DNA of 64,000 nucleotides from the sequence record OP870145.1; one strand, given 5' to 3'. Made by a program: the position numbers and the translations under genes. The notes beneath the pieces were generated by a model. It saw only the letters and a program-made list of their open reading frames with translations, was not told the DNA's origin and did no database searches. Of this stretch, positions 15,668-55,551 are shown in pieces (position 1 is the first letter of the stretch; every line of letters starts with the position of its first letter). Source of the DNA: Escherichia phage vB_Eco_F26.

Positions 15668-15675
15668 TATTTATA
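15668..15675 (-). promoter_or_regulatory. late promoter TATAAATA upstream of soc
   Basis: Exact TATAAATA on minus strand about 30 nt upstream of soc ATG. Confidence 0.6.
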
Positions 15676-16360
15676 CATCTTCTTTTCTGAATAAGTAAAT
15701 TAAATTCTTAAGAGCTGAACTTGTTACATCATATTTTCCTTTAAGCGCCTTTACAACCGGGCCTGTTGCTGGTTTACCTAAAGAAACCCATAACTCATGT
15801 ATTTCGCTTTTAAGCGGTTCATGCCAATGCGGCGCTTTTCTTTGCGCCCTTGAAGTTCCTTCTGAAATCTTTTTATTTCCGCCATTCGAATAAAACTTTT
15901 TCATTACTTCAGATTGCCGAGCTTTTCGTTCTGCTCTATTTTGGGCTATACGTTGTGAATTCTTCATCCGAGTTTTTGTTTCAGGATTGTTTAATCTAAG
16001 TTTATGTTCTAATCGTTGTTGCTCAGTCCATTTTCTTCCTTCTCCACCCTGACCACCAGGAGAAATATTAATGCAAGTATCTGGGTGTTTACGTTTTAAT
16101 GCAGATATTAGCTCGCGTTCAACTTCATATGATTTTTCTCTAGAACCATGGCATTTTGACCAACGTATTTTATAATTAAAACCATACTTACGATATATGT
16201 TCCATAGTATTTTGCCTGACCCCGGATATTTATCATCATATGGATTTACAATAAATGATTCATGTTTCCCAGCGTACCAAAAGACGCCTTTCGGCGTCCT
16301 AACTTTTACGATATATGTTCTATAAAATTTTTGTTTAATACCCATTATCTTGACGTTCAA
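15671..16360 (-). mobile_element. segF: GIY-YIG-like homing endonuclease (229 aa), segF-like
   Basis: N-terminal GIY-YIG-like motif (RTYIVKV ... GVFWYAGK), basic C-terminal DNA-binding region; between soc and gene 56. Confidence 0.65.
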
Positions 16361-16850
16361 AATTATGTTTATTTTTCAAATAATAAAGTTTAAAGATTTC
16401 TTCCGCATTCATTCCAAGGCCAGCAAACATATTTAATACGAAATGAAATATATCCACAAGCTCAAATTTAATTTCGAGCTGATCTTCTGGGGACATTTCA
16501 TCAATGCGTTTTTCTTGCGCTTCAATATAACGTGCTTTCCATTTTTTCCAAACTGCCGATGCATCTTTTTCACCACGTGACATTTCACCAAGAGAAGTCA
16601 GAAGTTCGCGGAATTCATCATCAATACAGTCTTTTTGTTCACGCATCCAAGAAACAACATCACCGGCAGTTTCTAATTTATCTGGATGATAACAGTATTC
16701 GCGGTCATTTGCTAAACGAATCTGTAAAGATTTCTGCATATCAAGCATTACCTGCAGCGGGTCTTTTTCATCACCGAGAATATCCCAATATTCATTTTGA
16801 GCTTTATCAGCGCCTTCGATCAGTTGACTACATTCGTTGAAATGTGGCAT
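16335..16850 (-). CDS. 56: dCTP pyrophosphatase (dCTPase/dUTPase, MazG-like), 171 aa
   Basis: 171 aa; locus and length match T4 gp56. Confidence 0.8.
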   Translation of the reverse strand: MPHFNECSQLIEGADKAQNEYWDILGDEKDPLQVMLDMQKSLQIRLANDREYCYHPDKLETAGDVVSWMREQKDCIDDEFRELLTSLGEMSRGEKDASAVWKKWKARYIEAQEKRIDEMSPEDQLEIKFELVDIFHFVLNMFAGLGMNAEEIFKLYYLKNKHNFERQDNGY

Positions 16851-40322: not shown

Positions 40323-40584
40323 TGTAAACTGATTTTTTCAACTTTCTTACTTCACCGCGTAATTGACGATTTAACTCATCTTTAACTTCTGAATCAATAC
40401 CTTTCATTCTACGCCATTTATCTGAGCGAAAAATGTTTTCAACCATATCTTTATGATTTACACCATCAGGAGCTTTACGCTTTCCGAAATAGTCATAATC
40501 ACGCACTTTTAAGTCTTTACGACGATACGTTTTACCCATGGAGTTTAATTTCCTTAGCAACTGAACTAAATACAGCACGGTCAC
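40246..40584 (-). CDS. hypothetical basic protein (112 aa)
   Basis: ORF. Confidence 0.4.
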   Translation of the reverse strand: MTVLYLVQLLRKLNSMGKTYRRKDLKVRDYDYFGKRKAPDGVNHKDMVENIFRSDKWRRMKGIDSEVKDELNRQLRGEVRKLKKSVYIDDDFDYNTSQRVAKRKSNECYRYS

Positions 40585-40714
40585 AAATCATCTGTTTATG
40601 TAACTTGAGTATAAGATAATAAACTTCAAAACCGTTTACATAAGTAACACGAACAACATTACCATTAATAAAATAATACTGTCCCTTTTTAATTTCTTTA
40701 TCAACCACAACCAT
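40532..40714 (-). CDS. hypothetical protein (60 aa)
   Basis: ORF downstream of early promoter 40745-40774. Confidence 0.4.
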   Translation of the reverse strand: MVVVDKEIKKGQYYFINGNVVRVTYVNGFEVYYLILKLHKQMICDRAVFSSVAKEIKLHG

Positions 40715-40744
40715 ATCAATTCCTCAAAGGCAATTCATATGTTA

Positions 40745-40774
40745 ATAATACCACAGTTTGAACTTCTTGTAAAC
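40745..40774 (-). promoter_or_regulatory. T4-type early promoter (GTTTAC-N18-TATTAT)
   Basis: Minus-strand GTTTAC 40769-40774. Confidence 0.5.
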
Positions 40775-40872
40775 AACTTTGTGAAAAATATTTTAGGGAA
40801 TGACAAGAAGGGAACGATAGCTTAGAATGGTAATATACAGAATGTGAGAAAGAAAGGCCCAGAGGGCCCGCC

Positions 40873-41205
40873 TTAGTCTTCTATGATATCTCTATCATAT
40901 CCAAGTGAAATGAGAGTTTCTTTGAAGTGTTTAATGTTCTTTTGTCTAGAATCATTGATGAAAATGACTGGATAACGAATGTTAAGAGATGTGAATCCAG
41001 CGCGTTTAGCAAGAGATACAATCAGTGGACGATCATACTCAATCTTACCATTATTTGTAAGAACTTTATAGAAAGTAAAAGGAGCATTAAGCTCCTTTAG
41101 AAGTTTTGTAACTGATTGACATCCAGGACAACGACCTACTTCATCTGGAATTCCATAGACTTCAATCTTATTCTTTAAGTTCGAGTTTTGTTCCACGAGA
41201 AATAA
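40873..41205 (-). CDS. nrdH: NrdH-like glutaredoxin (about 110 aa; start probably GTG near 41205)
   Basis: CPGC redox motif (GRCPGCQSV); ORF-track N-terminal extension overlaps upstream gene. Confidence 0.55.
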   Translation of the reverse strand, partial: LFLVEQNSNLKNKIEVYGIPDEVGRCPGCQSVTKLLKELNAPFTFYKVLTNNGKIEYDRPLIVSLAKRAGFTSLNIRYPVIFINDSRQKNIKHFKETLISLGYDRDIIED

Positions 41206-41479
41206 TTCCTTGGTAAGCCCAATAAGGAGGATTAACAGAATCCTCACCAGAGTTTTCTTCAGGAAAATAAACCTGGATAACGAAACCGGATTCATCAAAG
41301 GTAAAATAAACCGTAGGCAGTTCACCTAACAATTCGGCACGAGCATTAATTTCTTCGAGATCTCGTTCACGTCCAGCCCAAAAACTAGGATTTAGACTAC
41401 ATTCGTAAAAATAATAGTCATTACCGAACATATCAAAACCCTTCCAACTCTCGACCACATACCGCTCAAAACTAATCAT
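41168..41479 (-). CDS. hypothetical protein (103 aa)
   Basis: ORF. Confidence 0.45.
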   Translation of the reverse strand: MISFERYVVESWKGFDMFGNDYYFYECSLNPSFWAGRERDLEEINARAELLGELPTVYFTFDESGFVIQVYFPEENSGEDSVNPPYWAYQGIISRGTKLELKE

Positions 41480-41481
41480 AA

Positions 41482-41697
41482 TTAAGCCTTTTTATCAAGA
41501 ACAGAATTCAGCTTGTTAGTAATTTTATCCAGACGCCCATTGAATTCACTAGAAGATAAGCCCTTTTCTGGAGAAATTAAACTAATCACGAAAAATATAG
41601 CAATAAAAGGAATAAGGAAAATAGCTCCAACTGCCATAAACAGAAAGAATGTTACAGTTGTAAGAAAATCAGCTAAACCTTTACGAAATTTATACAT
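41482..41697 (-). CDS. small membrane protein (71 aa)
   Basis: Hydrophobic TM segment FLFMAVGAIFLIPFIAIFFVISLI. Confidence 0.4.
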   Translation of the reverse strand: MYKFRKGLADFLTTVTFFLFMAVGAIFLIPFIAIFFVISLISPEKGLSSSEFNGRLDKITNKLNSVLDKKA

Positions 41698-41812
41698 ATT
41701 TTACCCTTAATTGATTAACCAAGCATTGATAAGCACTAAACTATACTGTGAATAAAATTCTGGACCAAAATGAAAAATCATATCATTTATAGTATCCATA
41801 ATGTAATTCAAT

Positions 41813-42283
41813 TTAATCATGTTTCCACACCCCATCGGTATTTGACCAAAGCCGCTGATTATCTGATCCTCTCCACAGCTTTTTAGTCGGAAGATTTTTC
41901 TCATACTTCCCATCAATAATAACATCAACATATTTAAGCATTTCTAGTTGTTTAATATCTTCAAACTTATATCCTGTCCACAACCAAATGCTTTTATTGG
42001 GATAAAGATTTTTTACTGTTTGAACGATGCAATGAATCACGTCTCTGTTATCAGGATAAAGAGGGTCACCTCCGGTTATAGTTAATCCTTCTATATAATC
42101 ATTATTCAAACATTCAATTAATTGTTCTAGTGTTTCACCAGTGAATGGAACGCCATTTCTAGCATTCCATGTTGATTTATTATAACACCCTTCGCATTTA
42201 TGCAAACAACCTGTAACGAAAAGAACGGTCCTGCATCCAGGACCATTAACAAAGCAGCACGGGTATATTCTGTCATAATTCAT
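41813..42283 (-). CDS. nrdG: anaerobic ribonucleotide reductase activating protein, radical SAM (156 aa from MNYDRIYP)
   Basis: Radical-SAM cysteine cluster CLHKCEGC. Confidence 0.8.
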   Translation of the reverse strand: MNYDRIYPCCFVNGPGCRTVLFVTGCLHKCEGCYNKSTWNARNGVPFTGETLEQLIECLNNDYIEGLTITGGDPLYPDNRDVIHCIVQTVKNLYPNKSIWLWTGYKFEDIKQLEMLKYVDVIIDGKYEKNLPTKKLWRGSDNQRLWSNTDGVWKHD

Positions 42284-43110
42284 AATAATATCCAATTTTT
42301 CCAAGCTTCATCAGTAGAATTACAGCGTTTTAGTATAAGATGTCTAGAAACTTTTATGGCATTTGAGCACTTTTTAATTGAATCATATTTAATACCGTCA
42401 ACTGAAACGGTTTTGCTAGTTGGAGAAATTTTTCCATACATTGGATTTTTTGAACCAACTTGAAGTCCTTTTAAAGCTTTTGAAAGCTTTTGTCTAGATT
42501 CCAATGACATGGGAGAATTCTTTTTACCTTCAATAATTCGCTTGCGATGAAGTTCGCGTTCTTCTTCACTCAAAGAATTGTAATATTTTTTAACACCGTT
42601 TGATATAGATAATTTATCTTTCTCAGACCGCTCTCCAGCTAATTTACTTCTAACATCTTTTCGCTTCATAGCTATGCTTACAGCTTTATTTAAATTTGCT
42701 TGATGCTCTGGCGTACGTTTATATTTCTTTAAAGCACGTGAAATAGCTATTTTAGTTTCTTCTGTTCTCTTTTTACCTTTATTTGCTAAACTATTTTTGC
42801 GGCGATGCTCAAGTGTCTGTTCATAGGCAGTTCCACCTTTTCCACCAGGTTTAATATTATATGTGTTTTCTTTTAGACAATACTCTTCGGTTACAAGTTC
42901 AGCTTCTTTATCATACATTTGTTTTTCATTATCAAAAACATGTAAAATTTCTTTATTAAAATTTTTTCTACCATATTTTAATAAAGCGGCACGAATCAAT
43001 GTTCCTGATCCCATATAACCGTCATTTATGTTATCGGTGCTATGCGCACCGATATATTCCTTTGAATTAATTATATTTGTTATTTTATAAATTATATAAT
43101 ACCTATGCAT
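42280..43110 (-). mobile_element. GIY-YIG homing endonuclease (276 aa) between nrdG and nrdD
   Basis: N-terminal YYIIYKITN...KEYIGAHS motif; basic C-terminal region. Confidence 0.65.
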
Positions 43111-44434
43111 GTTTTACTCGTTTTACCATTTCTTTCATTTTACCTAAATTCCATGGAACAACGCTAGGAGTTCCAAGATATCCGCATGTTCTTCTTATTG
43201 TGTTCATCTTTTTAGGATCAGTTTCTCCACAAATAGAACAAACAAATCCGTTTTCAGTAGGAGTCATTTCATGGGTACTTCCACATGTAAAACATTTATC
43301 TACTGGCATATTAACACCAAAATAATCTAAATGTTGTGCAGCATAATCCCATACGGCCTCAAGGCCTTTCAAGTTATTTTTCATATCAGGAAGTTCAACA
43401 TAAGAAATGTGACCACCTGTCGCAATGAAATGATACGGAGCTTCGCGAGAAATCTTTTCAAACGGAGTAATATTTTCTTCTACTGAAACGTGGAAACTGT
43501 TAGTGTACCAGCCTTTATCGGTAACATCTTTTACACTTCCATATTTTTCGGTATCAAGTTTACAGAAGCGATAGCACAGGTTTTCAGCAGGAGTAGAATA
43601 CAAACTAAAAGCAAAACCGGTTCTTTCAGTCCACTGCTTAAGACGAGCATTCATTTTAGTCAAAATTTCCTGTCCAATATCACGACCGACAAGAATATTC
43701 AATTCGTGAATACCAATGTATCCTAGGGATACTGAACTTCTACCGTTTTTAAATAACTCAATTATGTCATCATCAGGTTTAAGACGAACCCCGAATGCAC
43801 CTTCTTGGTAAAGAATAGGAGCAACAGTAGCTTTAACTCCTTTTAAGGAACTAATTCTACACATCAAAGCTTCAAAACACAGGTCCATTCGCTCGTCGAA
43901 CAATTCAGTAAATTTCTGTTCATTGAACTGTGTTCCAATATAAGAATCTAACGCGATGCGAGGAAGATTCAGTGTTACAACGCCAAGATTATTACGACCG
44001 TCAAGAATTTCATTACCGGTCGAATCTTTCCATACGCTCAAGAAACTACGGCAGCCCATTGGAGAAACTGGAACTGAAGAACCAGTGATAGCTTTATTGT
44101 TCTTAGCTGAAATAATATCAGGATACATTCTTTTGCTTGCACATTCTAACGCAAGTTGTTTAATATCATAGTTTGGATCATCTTTATAAAGATTAACACC
44201 TTCTTCAACAAACATAACAAGTTTAGGAAAAATAGGAGTTATTCCATCACGACCAAGACCTTTAATGCGGTTTTTAAGAATTGCCTTCTGAATCATTCGT
44301 TCGGTCCAATCGGTTCCTGTACCAAATGTAATTGTTACAAAAGGCGTTTGTCCGTTTGAACTAAAAAGAGTATTTACTTCATCATTATATTCAGCATGAG
44401 TCGCAAATTCATGCCCGTTTATATGAAACAACAA
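43103..44434 (-). CDS. nrdD: anaerobic ribonucleotide reductase NrdD, exon 2 (glycyl-radical C-terminal part); exact 3' splice site not determined
   Basis: Glycyl radical motif RRTCGYLG near C-terminus; CxxC pairs; ORF-track N-terminus probably includes intron-derived codons. Confidence 0.8.
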   Translation of the reverse strand: MLFHINGHEFATHAEYNDEVNTLFSSNGQTPFVTITFGTGTDWTERMIQKAILKNRIKGLGRDGITPIFPKLVMFVEEGVNLYKDDPNYDIKQLALECASKRMYPDIISAKNNKAITGSSVPVSPMGCRSFLSVWKDSTGNEILDGRNNLGVVTLNLPRIALDSYIGTQFNEQKFTELFDERMDLCFEALMCRISSLKGVKATVAPILYQEGAFGVRLKPDDDIIELFKNGRSSVSLGYIGIHELNILVGRDIGQEILTKMNARLKQWTERTGFAFSLYSTPAENLCYRFCKLDTEKYGSVKDVTDKGWYTNSFHVSVEENITPFEKISREAPYHFIATGGHISYVELPDMKNNLKGLEAVWDYAAQHLDYFGVNMPVDKCFTCGSTHEMTPTENGFVCSICGETDPKKMNTIRRTCGYLGTPSVVPWNLGKMKEMVKRVKHA

Positions 44435-45430
44435 AATTTGGATAGTCCATAGATATGCAACGTTCTTTTATAGCGCTAGGATGAAAATTTAGCGCTTTAG
44501 CTGCTTCTATATAAGACGTATACTTAATACCGTCAACAACCACATATTCAGGAACTTTATGAATAGTAGTCTTAATACTCAAAACAAGAGGATGAGTTTC
44601 GACTTCACTTTCAGTGCAATTTAAATATTCCGCTGCTTTTTTAAAACTTCTAAAAGTTTTATTTTTAAGCTTTATCGATACTTGTTTTTTACTTTTTCGA
44701 CTATTGATATTATTTTGCACATGTTCCTTAGATCTTCCGTTTTTAGCATAATATTCAGCTACAGAAGATTTTATATTGTTTTTATGAGATTCGGATAACA
44801 CTTTACCCTTATGAGCATCTCTTAATTTTTGAATATGTTCTTCAGTATCCGGATGCTTATAAAACTTTTTACCGCCTATGGATTTATTTAAACATTTTTT
44901 GCTATAAAAATATTTACGTATGACCTCTTCTTCATGTTTTAATGCATCTTTATAACTATCAAATGTTTTTAAAATTATCCATTTAGTAGGTGTATCAGTT
45001 TTTAAGCGTTCATTTATATACTTAGATGACGTTGTGTAAGTTTTCCAGTTTGTGGGCTTGTTTTTAATTGTTCTAAATTTTTTATAACCGATATAAATGT
45101 CGCCATTAGAAAACTTAACTAAGTATGTAAATGCGTCTTTATCTTTTATTTTAGTACAACGTCTTTTTATCCATTTCATTGTTTCACCTCGTATTCATAA
45201 GATAATCTTATTTATACAAGATGACTGCTGCATGTCGCCATGCAGATTAGACTATATCTTCATCTTTCGATGCCGGCCGTTTCGAATAGCATTAGCTTCT
45301 ATTCTACACCGCTACATTCATCACGGTTAGTCGTTAGGCATTTAGTTCAAAAGAACATTTAGCACGGGATTGTCTACTAGAGAGGTTCCCCGTTTAGACC
45401 GGTTTTACATGAGCCTGAATTAAATTAACT
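44380..45430 (-). other. group I intron in nrdD (approximate boundaries) carrying an endonuclease ORF
   Basis: nrdD reading frame interrupted by about 1 kb containing a GIY-YIG ORF and 240 nt of non-coding structured sequence (45180-45420); exon lengths sum to about 605 aa only if about 1.0 kb is removed. Confidence 0.6.
44409..45179 (-). mobile_element. intron-encoded GIY-YIG endonuclease (256 aa), I-TevII-like
   Basis: N-terminal FTYLVKFSNGDIYIGYKK motif; located inside nrdD intron. Confidence 0.65.
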
Positions 45431-45965
45431 CATACGCCTGGAATGCATCGTATACGTCTTTTTCTGTTTTAGATTGAGCATAATTCAACGCATCAGCGAT
45501 TTGCCATTTTTCTGCATCCTCAATATGTTTTGCATAGGTGCGTTTAACATAAGGAGAAAGTACTTTATCTACATTCGCAAAAGTCGTTCCGCCGTATTGG
45601 TGAGAAGCAACCTGTGCAGTAATTTGTGCCATAATTGCAGTAGCAACACCGATTGATTTAGGAGTTTCAATCTGTGCATTACCGAGCTTAAATCCGTTCT
45701 CAAGCATTCCTTTTAAATCTACTAAACAGCAATTAGTAAAAGGCAATGATATACTGTAATCTAAATCATGAAAATGAATTAATCCAACATTATGGGCATT
45801 TACAATATGACTTGGAAGAATACGACAAGCGATATGTTTAGAAACAATACCGGCCATTAAATCTCTTTTTGTTGGAAAGACGCGAGAATCTTTGTTGGCG
45901 TTTTCTGTATTTAATTCTTTATCTTTATTTGAAATAAAATTTAAAACATCTTTCTCTAAAGACAT
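45420..45965 (-). CDS. nrdD: anaerobic ribonucleotide reductase NrdD, exon 1 (181 codons in ORF track; last codons may be intronic)
   Basis: N-terminal part of class III RNR, in-frame stop at 45420 inside intron. Confidence 0.7.
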   Translation of the reverse strand: MSLEKDVLNFISNKDKELNTENANKDSRVFPTKRDLMAGIVSKHIACRILPSHIVNAHNVGLIHFHDLDYSISLPFTNCCLVDLKGMLENGFKLGNAQIETPKSIGVATAIMAQITAQVASHQYGGTTFANVDKVLSPYVKRTYAKHIEDAEKWQIADALNYAQSKTEKDVYDAFQAYELI

Positions 45966-46777
45966 AATTCTAATTTATCCTTTTGAAATTCTTCGTCTAA
46001 ATATGGGTTCCAACCCATTTTAAACCTTTTGATGAAATTATCAATTCTAAATTTCGGTAAGTTTAAATCCGCAAAAATAGATGATTTACTTTTAAAATCT
46101 GGACCTAAATAATCATATAAAATTTCTGCGTATTTTAACCATAATATATAAGTACCAGATTTAATTGCTCTCGGAGTTTTCCAAGGTTTTACACCATACA
46201 TCGGATTTCCACTTCCTTTATGCCTGATAGAAGATGAAATTCCAATTTTAATTTTAGCTTCCTTTGTGTGCGAAAATCCATGATGCGGATTTTCTTTCCA
46301 GTATTTTTTAGAAGCTTCTGATATTTTCTTTCTGGCTAAATTAGTATGATGCTTTCCATAAAATCCATGATTTTTACCTTTATTACGATTTCTTTTAATC
46401 ATGGTTATTGATTGCTTTTCTCTAGTTTCTTTAGAAGGAGAAATACCATACGTTGTAAATTGACCGTTAGCATATGCTAAATTGAAATACTCTTTATTCC
46501 ATATATCTTTTTCTATATTCTTTTGAAATTCAGCTTCAATGCTAGTTATTTGTTCATCTCCGACTAATTGAAAATATAATATTTCAACTTTCGGCGTTTC
46601 TTTCAATAGAGCTTTTTGAAATTCAGAAGATGACGAAGACGAATAATAAAATTTACCATTTTTATCAATAATATTCGTTCCATCAAAAGTGCAATTAGTT
46701 TTACTTCCAATGTAATAATATGGCGGGGTTTTAGCATTAATTCTATTAATAAATGATAGTTTATATACTACATTCAT
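45956..46777 (-). mobile_element. GIY-YIG-like endonuclease with NUMOD3 repeats (273 aa) between nrdD and gene 49
   Basis: VVYKL...PPYYYIGSK N-terminus; repeats GKNHGFYGKHHT, HHGFSHTKEAK, GSGNPMYGV. Confidence 0.6.
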
Positions 46778-47247
46778 TTTAAACTCTTTCTAAGCTGCTT
46801 CTTAAATGAAGCTATTAACTGTGTTTTAGTGTCAGATTCATTATATTCAAATCCTCTTTGAAGCATCTCAGCCATCATTTCCTCTTTTCCTAAACGAGAA
46901 AATTCCTTTGATTTATCTCCAACGAAGTTAGGGTGAATATTATTTTGGGTGTAATCGGATTTTAAATAAGTAAGTAAATTTTCTAACCATTCAAGATAAT
47001 CAACACCTTGTCCCTTTAAGCCAGAACGATTAAATTTATGCTTCATTTGACCTTCTGCGGCATTGCAGAGATTACAAAGCAATCCACGTACCTTTCCTGC
47101 TTTTGGTCCATTTAATTCATGGTCATGGTCGAGGTGATTAGCTTGAACATCAGGATTTAGTTCTCGTTGGCAAATTAAGCATTTACCATTTTGTGCATCA
47201 TAAAATTTCTGTTTTTCTTTTTTATATAATTTGCCAGTCAATAACAT
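46774..47247 (-). CDS. 49: endonuclease VII (Holliday junction resolvase), 157 aa
   Basis: Zinc-binding CLICQ...HLDHDH motif; 157 aa. Confidence 0.8.
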   Translation of the reverse strand: MLLTGKLYKKEKQKFYDAQNGKCLICQRELNPDVQANHLDHDHELNGPKAGKVRGLLCNLCNAAEGQMKHKFNRSGLKGQGVDYLEWLENLLTYLKSDYTQNNIHPNFVGDKSKEFSRLGKEEMMAEMLQRGFEYNESDTKTQLIASFKKQLRKSLK

Positions 47248-54831: not shown

Positions 54832-55551
54832 TTAGGATTCTTCTAAATGTCTTTTCTGAAAAGTTGATACCATACTACGATACGGTTCATTTGGATATCC
54901 GTGTTTTATAGCTTCCTTTGTAAATTTTCTCCATCCATATTTAGTTTCTTTCCAAAGCTCGAATAATTCATCTTCATACTGCCATATAGTTAAATGAGAA
55001 CGCTTTGCAGCTTTAATTCCATTAATATGCTTTTCTTTTACTGTAGGATTGCTTAGTTTCTTTTTAATAATATTACTAACTTTTCTAACAAAAACTGGGT
55101 CCTTATATCGTTGCGAAGTTTTTATTGAAGTGTTTAATTTAGCTTCCGGCGTGGATGTGACCTCTTTCATCTTTTTCTTCATATGCTGTATATGATTAGG
55201 ATTTTTCCATAAATTTATAGAATGCTTTTTGCATTTTATCCTAGTTTCATCTGCAACCTTTCCTCCTTCACCCCCGTATGACAGGTTAACACAGTTTTTT
55301 CCATATTTCAATTTACCTGCCATGATATATAATATTTCAGCTTGTACCATTTTATCATAATTATCAAAAACTTCTAAAACCGTTTTTGATAATATGTGGT
55401 CATTTGACACTTTTACACGTTCTATATAATTTCCACTACCAACATACGAATCATTGATGTTATTAGTTATATGTCGACCATAATAGTATTTCTTAATACC
55501 TGTCTTTAAATTTAATATTTCAGTTTTATAGATAGTAAAATATTTTTTCAT
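54832..55551 (-). mobile_element. possible GIY-YIG-like endonuclease (239 aa)
   Basis: N-terminal YFTIYKTE...KKYYYGRH; basic C-terminal half. Confidence 0.4.

Follow-up and report, generated by a model that had tools for sequence, protein, structure and literature searches.

The 64,000-nucleotide stretch of Escherichia phage vB_Eco_F26 analyzed here (sequence record OP870145.1, hereafter the window) includes nrdD, the gene for the anaerobic ribonucleotide reductase, in a 4.7-kb region that also carries three endonuclease genes. Judged by its sequence, the window is part of a Tequatrovirus (T4-like) genome; a megablast search with the 4.7-kb region returned 962 phage records, mostly from Tequatrovirus, that match parts of it, and the identity with Salmonella phage Lv5cm is 97.4%. 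The order on the minus strand is gene 49, a seg-like open reading frame (ORF), nrdD exon 1, an intron, nrdD exon 2, segH, and nrdG. The five ORFs which the initial annotation had placed in this region were all recovered on the minus strand by ORF listing and Pfam searches. With high confidence, the locus can be considered the operon for the anaerobic ribonucleotide reductase in a T4-like phage (genes 49, nrdD and nrdG), colonized by three independent selfish elements of known kinds.

Two ORFs encode parts of NrdD. One of them, 181 amino acids long (nucleotides 45420-45965), matches the Pfam family NRDD at positions 1-141, and the other, 443 amino acids long (43103-44434), matches positions 145-562 of the same family as well as Gly_radical. 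The initial annotation described nrdD as a gene in two pieces; both ORFs are indeed there, but their ends overshoot those of the exons, which are found at 45428 and 44382. Exon 1 consists of 538 nucleotides (45428-45965), with its junction placed by alignment with T4, Lv5cm and the intronless nrdD of phage RB3, and exon 2, identified by Pfam and alignment, consists of 1,280 nucleotides including the stop codon (43103-44382) and codes for the glycyl-radical domain. The exon alignments with T4, Lv5cm and intronless RB3 locate the 5′ splice site after ...GCGTATGAGT (45428) and the 3′ splice site after ...GAATATAATG (44383). Joining the exons generates an open coding sequence of 1,818 nucleotides for a 605-amino acid NrdD, the same length as that of the intronless RB3 nrdD (40539-42356 in RB3). 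The predicted junction of the ligated exons reads ...GCGUAUGAGU followed by AUGAAGUAAAU..., which can also be written as ...GCGTATGAGT followed by ATGAAGTAAATAC....

The 1,045 nucleotides that separate the exons (44383-45427, minus strand) were identified as a group I intron of the IA type by a match to Rfam family RF00028, by alignment with T4 and by covariation. The U of GAGU precedes its first base, and its last base is the G at 44383. The insertion site is identical to that of the T4 nrdD (sunY) intron and the exon flanks are conserved in the alignment, which agrees with the earlier proposal of a group I intron as in T4. Intron RNA extends for 248 nucleotides on the 5′ side and 26 nucleotides on the 3′ side of an ORF located within it. 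A covariance-model search, which the initial annotation had recommended together with the location of the P1-P9 elements and splice sites, produced a match of 70.6 bits (E = 1.6e-17, over the whole model at positions 1-253; the gathering score of RF00028 is 50 bits) at 45228-45463 of the minus strand when a 1.5-kb sub-region was scanned, and the P1-P9 elements and both sites could be placed. Rfam scans of the whole 64-kb window yielded no match at the gathering threshold or at the E-value threshold. Since these scans missed an intron that was detected in the sub-region, a negative whole-window scan is not evidence of absence; speed filters lose an ORF-bearing intron in long inputs, and other structured RNAs of the window could be missed likewise.

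The internal guide sequence GCUCAU, read directly from the sequence, is located at 45409-45414 of the minus strand. In the P1 helix it pairs with the last six bases of exon 1, AUGAGU, and places a U(45428)·G(45414) pair at the cleavage site; this helix is kept in T4, Escherichia phage JEP1 and phage A110a. The Rfam alignment located the catalytic core, with P3, P4, P5, P6/P6a, P7, P7.1, P7.2, P8 and P9, at 45228-45402 of the same strand. Covariation was analyzed with five sequences, those of the window, T4, JEP1, Aeromonas phage 2L372X and A110a, scoring helices P1, P3-P9, P7.1 and P7.2 against controls in which the partners were slid by 1-3 columns and against 500 shuffles. Across the five sequences 96.4% of the cells of 52 pairs were paired. 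Double-sided changes were found in 20 of the 52 pairs compared with 1-5 in the slid controls, and none of the 500 shuffles reached the observed covariation. Counted pair by pair in each helix, compensatory changes were present in P3, P4, P6a, P7.1 and P7.2, and P7, the site of guanosine binding, was invariant. A hairpin that includes the stop codon of the ORF is predicted at the 3′ terminus of the intron (44393-44415, minus strand) and also in T4, and its stems are compensated, being GCAUGA/UCAUGC in the window and GUAGAG/CUCUAC in T4. By these comparisons the element is a group I intron of the T4 nrdD lineage that represents a second allele class, and its homology to the T4 intron leads us to infer that it self-splices.

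The intervening sequence might instead be retained, in which case the two ORFs would be a pseudogene or would code for separate polypeptides. Possible start codons do precede each of the two genomic ORFs, and many GenBank records annotate two separate coding sequences. On the other hand, the group I core is complete and strongly covarying, the frame is restored exactly at the T4 splice junction, the exons are 93-98% conserved right up to the junction, the T4 homolog is annotated as a join across a group IA intron, and the splicing and mobility of the T4 nrdD intron are established (PMC2988022). A split or dead nrdD was rejected on account of the intact core, the covariation and the restored frame, and we regard it as extremely improbable. 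Most GenBank records give nrdD as two separate coding sequences with no join; with the intron in place, the two nrdD ORFs should be annotated as joined over the 1,045 nucleotides.

Cores related to this intron, about 70-82% identical to its positions 14-217, were found elsewhere. In JEP1 (L008, 390-1150) the core interrupts nrdD at another codon, between SMG and CRSF as read by eye, and an HNH ORF is located in the P6 loop. The A110a core (L010, 544-826, an unannotated record) has the same exon flank as that of JEP1 (CATGGGTAAACT) and a P6 that is 52 nucleotides longer, and that of Aeromonas phage 2L372X (L009, 555-805) is found in the gene for the terminase large subunit. The presence of related cores at other sites and in other genes, in JEP1 with another ORF, indicates that one ribozyme scaffold has come to be combined with more than one endonuclease family and more than one target gene.

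The intron ORF (44409-45179, minus strand) codes for a 256-amino acid protein that is homologous over its full length to the T4 homing endonuclease I-TevII, with 144 of 257 residues identical (56%, E = 2e-101, residues 1-256). It matches the GIY-YIG family PF19835 above the cut-off of 25 bits, with 26.6 bits for the full protein and 31.1 bits for the N-terminal domain alone, and NUMOD1 just below the cut-off (22.0 versus 22.8 bits). The initial annotation recognized this ORF as a GIY-YIG gene, and the homology and the profile match bear it out. Sequence comparison identifies the product as a diverged allele of the GIY-YIG enzyme I-TevII and not as the T4 protein. An exact match to the T4 late-promoter box, TATAAATA, is located at 45209-45216 of the minus strand; T4 has the same box in the same place. 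A hairpin that folding predicts to sequester the Shine-Dalgarno sequence GAGG (45184-45224, minus strand) has a calculated energy of -19.4 kcal/mol (z = -4.4), none of 200 shuffles was as stable, and an equivalent hairpin is found in T4. The late-promoter box is located inside this hairpin. A late promoter together with a hidden ribosome-binding site is the published regulatory scheme for I-TevI, I-TevII as well as I-TevIII (PMC2988022).

The fused homing site and the ribosome-binding region upstream of the intron ORF were also compared with each other (TATGAGTATGAAGT... and TATGAATACGAGGT...; junction 45428-45434/44373-44382 and nucleotides 45184-45200, respectively). In T4 the likeness amounts to 17 of 21 bases and was reached by 24 of 2,000 shuffles, consistent with a proposed I-TevII operator (PMC2988022). 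The match in the window is weaker because exon 2 differs; 846 of 2,000 shuffles reached it, so that it is not above chance, and an I-TevII operator in the window was dropped as a candidate.

The proteins encoded by introns of this kind in phage records fall into two classes, with 44 records at an identity of at least 95% to the window protein, 32 below 60%, and none between; the 32 are mostly of the T4 type, at about 56%, together with some distant partial matches. These classes could mean that the window-type and T4-type endonucleases are not interchangeable alleles and that they differ in specificity and compete, one cutting DNA that carries the other. The discreteness of the classes favors this idea, as do the identity of only 66% between the intron DNAs of the two classes, the differences between carriers of the two types at exon 2 positions +8, +11, +14, +15 and +17 (variants GTAAATACT and GTGAACACG), the homing-site likeness that exceeds chance in T4 but not in the window, and the precedent of SPO1/SP82 (Goodrich-Blair and Shub 1996, cited in PMC2988022). 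However, both intron types are located at exactly the same site, the recognition site is interrupted by the intron in both with no sign of cleavage of intron-containing DNA, and in carriers of the window type the exon flanks are similar to those of intronless RB3, as ordinary homing predicts. We therefore consider such competition unlikely. The same low probability applies to its extended form, in which a shift in recognition or cleavage specificity of the window-type enzyme would be tied to the exon 2 polymorphisms and both lineages, along with the flanking enzymes, would compete in mixed infections. If true, the two lineages would be the T-even counterpart of the SPO1/SP82 intron-endonuclease competition.

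A second element, the 276-amino acid ORF at 42280-43110 of the minus strand, is located between nrdD and nrdG, where T4 has mobC. It overlaps the nrdD stop codon by 8 nucleotides and the start of nrdG by 4. Its product is 100% identical over 276 amino acids to RB3 SegH (ABI48949.1, AY262138.2), and on this identity the gene is segH, a gene for a free-standing GIY-YIG homing endonuclease. The N-terminal domain alone matches PF19835 with 30.5 bits, NUMOD3 was also matched, and a match to I-TevI_DNA-bd was below threshold (21.1 versus 27 bits). The gene was reportedly named, from phages RB3/U5, by Sandegren, Nord and Sjöberg in 2005 (NAR 33:6203), as the one that takes the place of mobC; AY262138.2 was deposited with this paper, the title of which reports site-specific endonuclease activity and homing. 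SegH is annotated as a 244-amino acid protein starting at the internal Met33, with the GIY-YIG motif cut off, in SYGD1 (L003, 881-1615) and fPS-2 (L005, 881-1615). The full 831-nucleotide segH frame is intact across the alignment in fPS-2, and in SYGD1 the annotated 244 amino acids, to which the comparison was limited, are 100% identical to those of the window.

The last 82 nucleotides of nrdD (43103-43184, minus strand), which directly follow the CGYLG glycyl-radical motif, are a diverged tract linked to the presence of segH or mobC. This tail is 58.5% identical to that of T4, which has mobC, and 98.8-100% identical to those of RB3, SP21535, fPS-2 and Lv5cm, all of which have segH. Outside this tail, exon 2 shares 93-95% identity with T4, RB3, SP21535, fPS-2 and Lv5cm alike.

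The third element is a 273-amino acid ORF at 45956-46777 of the minus strand, between 49 and nrdD, a position where the alignment shows no gene in T4, RB3 and SP21535. Its start overlaps the stop codon of gene 49 as ATGA, so that the ATG of this ORF replaces that of nrdD, and its last 10 nucleotides overlap the new nrdD start. Approximately 126 N-terminal amino acids are 40% identical to SegG, and the C-terminal half, which carries NUMOD3 according to Pfam, is unrelated. Among 21 homologs, residues Y5, Y22-I23-G24, E81 and N99 show little or no variation, and the GIY-YIG catalytic fold was recognized. The prediction in the initial annotation that nrdD is flanked on both sides by free-standing GIY-YIG genes holds for segH by identity and PF19835 and for the upstream ORF by homology to SegG and fold. 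Orthology with SegG was ruled out by the restriction of the homology to the N-terminal domain and by the location at 49/nrdD and not at 59/32; the sequence identifies the gene as a SegG-like paralog that codes for a free-standing homing endonuclease. A gene at least 90% identical is present in 49 phage records and, among those listed, always between 49 and nrdD.

The first 225 nucleotides of nrdD (45741-45965, minus strand) are also a diverged tract, in this case linked to the upstream gene. They are 61% identical to T4, RB3 and SP21535, which lack the gene, and 99.6% identical to fPS-2 and Lv5cm, which have it. There are 80 fixed differences between carriers and non-carriers in the tract, the last one at nucleotide 225, and from nucleotide 226 all are 96-98% identical. 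This segment is likely the co-converted flank and, in phages that do not have the gene, the location of the target of the upstream enzyme. Diverged tracts such as those at the two ends of nrdD would be expected after co-conversion from a more distant donor or under selection for resistance to self-cleavage, and they probably mark where the targets of the free-standing enzymes lie.

Relatives of the window phage carry different combinations of these elements. Of the three, only segH is present in RB3, the intron and segH are present in SP21535 and SYGD1, and the Pu-Krd-SF phages lack the intron but carry both flanking genes, with a match of 3,656 nucleotides that equals 4,701 minus 1,045. All three elements are present in fPS-2, with an intron of the T4 type, and in Lv5cm, whose set is that of the window. 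Because of these combinations the three are most likely independent homing elements. Between phages the intron is 99.7-99.9% identical (SP21535, Lv5cm and SYGD1), the identity of segH is about 99.4% and that of the upstream gene about 98%, as opposed to about 94% for nrdD exon 2; elements that are less diverged than the gene that hosts them fit a recent horizontal spread. The reading of the locus as a colonized operon has direct support in its anatomy, in homology, RNA structure and covariation, in the restoration of the reading frame, in the linkage of the diverged nrdD flanks to each free-standing gene and in the near-identity of the elements in phages that differ more in nrdD. For endonuclease activity, target sites and homing, the expectation comes from the families to which the proteins belong, with precedents for splicing, cleavage and homing in T4 and RB3 (PMC2988022, PMC2790892, PMC1865063).

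Several points weigh against this reading. The intron endonuclease shares only 56% identity with the characterized I-TevII, splicing and cleavage are extrapolated from homology to T4 and RB3 elements, and where the two free-standing enzymes have their target sites is a guess based on the diverged tracts. The upstream ORF did not match the Pfam GIY-YIG families PF01541 and PF19835 even at E = 10, and its 21 homologs show no conservation where the canonical catalytic arginine would be, R12 being conserved elsewhere, which makes the activity of this ORF the least certain of the three. RB3 SegG, a characterized relative, showed no Pfam match at all, indicating that the GIY-YIG profiles do not cover this clade. 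Sequence searches against PDB chains with the three endonucleases returned no meaningful match, and those against NCBIfam only sub-threshold matches to TIGR01453.

The two peculiarities of the upstream ORF also make it the likeliest case of another scenario, in which the intron splices while at least one endonuclease gene, inactive or in decay, is a passenger kept only by hitch-hiking on the cuts made by its neighbors. T-even phages commonly carry defunct homing endonuclease genes, and homing in trans by a neighbor is documented, the model being the defunct T4 I-TevIII mobilized by MobE (PMC2790892); the three genes considered here are located within 4.5 kb, which is in the range of co-conversion. 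However, all three ORFs are intact and of full length, E81, N99 and the tyrosines of the GIY and YIG motifs are conserved in the upstream ORF, and SegG, with a domain 40% identical, has no Pfam match either and yet was published as active (Liu et al. 2003, cited in PMC2988022). In addition, other phages carry each element on its own, a distribution that speaks for autonomous spread. A passenger gene is considered improbable.

In the mechanism proposed for these elements, the nrdD transcript would fold into the P1-P9 core and self-splice, with guanosine attacking after the U of AUGAGU; ligation of the exons after the terminal G of the intron would then render a messenger RNA for the 605-amino acid NrdD. 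The intron ORF would be silent in early and middle read-through transcripts, in which the hairpin would hide the ribosome-binding site, and it would be expressed late from the TATAAATA promoter within the hairpin. In a co-infecting phage with an intronless nrdD, the I-TevII allele may cut that gene near the insertion site, and repair of the double-strand break would copy the intron into it. No promoter is evident for the two free-standing genes, whose start codons overlap the stop codon of the preceding gene, an arrangement that suggests translational coupling. Their enzymes would cut alleles that lack the respective genes, near their own insertion points, and repair would copy the endonuclease gene along with the adjacent nrdD sequence.

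The locus illustrates how the ribonucleotide reductase genes of T4-like phages gather selfish endonuclease genes, each free-standing gene dragging along a recoded piece of the host gene. All three elements were already known in kind and are annotated, in various combinations, in dozens of phages in GenBank, and the full arrangement is also found in Lv5cm; as the elements are all of well-known kinds, the finding is correct but ordinary. It fits existing knowledge and opens no new question, the modest points of interest being the specificity that the second I-TevII lineage has and the target that the 49/nrdD enzyme would cut. In terms of annotation, three genes that would be labeled as hypothetical or homing endonuclease can now be named as an I-TevII allele, segH and a SegG-like gene.

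The genes at both ends of the locus belong to the host operon. Gene 49, which codes for recombination endonuclease VII, is located at 46774-47247 of the minus strand; it matches the Pfam families Endonuclease_7 and Endonuc-dimeris and was aligned with its counterparts in T4, RB3 and SP21535. The gene for the activating enzyme, nrdG (41813-42283, minus strand), matches Fer4_12 and Radical_SAM. Starting from the ATG at 42283, which overlaps the segH stop codon as ATGA, it consists of 471 nucleotides coding for 156 amino acids, the same length as in T4 and relatives, and this ATG is likely the start codon, not the TTG at 42304 given by the ORF lister (163 amino acids).

A tblastn search with SegH detected two further seg-type GIY-YIG ORFs in the window, both on the minus strand, at 54832-55551 and 15671-16360, with 31% and 30% identity to SegH over the N-terminal domain, respectively. 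The latter abuts and overlaps the end of a 171-amino acid ORF (16335-16850), which from its translation we take to be a homolog of the gene 56 dCTPase; in T4, SegF occupies a position of that kind.

In T4 the order of genes is 49, nrdD (a join across a group IA intron with I-TevII), mobC (HNH) and nrdG, so that 49 abuts nrdD. The initial annotation had placed, correctly according to this order, an HNH gene of T4, mobC, between nrdG and nrdD, and had called for a comparison of the flanking endonuclease genes with those of T4: where T4 has mobC downstream and nothing between 49 and nrdD, segH replaces mobC in the window. The window and T4 introns share a P1-P9 core that is wholly 5′ of the ORF, the short hairpin after the ORF, and the P1 pairing; they differ in that the DNA is only about 66% identical, in length (1,045 versus 1,033 nucleotides in T4), and in P3, P4, P6a, P7.1, P7.2 and P8, which have compensatory substitutions or altered lengths. 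With respect to T4 I-TevII, the window keeps the late promoter, the hairpin at the ribosome-binding site and the full-length homology. As for segH, the window and RB3 have the same protein, position and variant nrdD 3′ end, with 4-5 synonymous nucleotide differences, but the nrdD next to segH in RB3 has no intron.

T4 SegG (gene 32.1) is an active free-standing GIY-YIG endonuclease (Liu et al. 2003, cited in PMC2988022). The upstream gene of the window has in common with it the N-terminal catalytic domain, the absence of an evident promoter and the position wedged between essential genes with overlapping stop and start codons. T4 SegG cuts at a distance and causes marker exclusion. The C-terminal half of the upstream ORF is unrelated to that of SegG and includes NUMOD3, which RB3 SegG does not have, and for this reason a DNA target different from that of SegG is expected. 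A further parallel is offered by the trans-homing of T4 mobE and the nrdB intron and by the collaborative homing of introns and free-standing endonucleases, where a free-standing endonuclease gene is also located within recombination distance of a ribonucleotide reductase group I intron, so that a cut made by one element can co-convert the other (PMC2790892). No sign of dependence between the elements was obtained for the nrdD locus of the window, which differs from this parallel in that the intron has its own intact endonuclease and that there are two flanking genes, both of them GIY-YIG rather than HNH.

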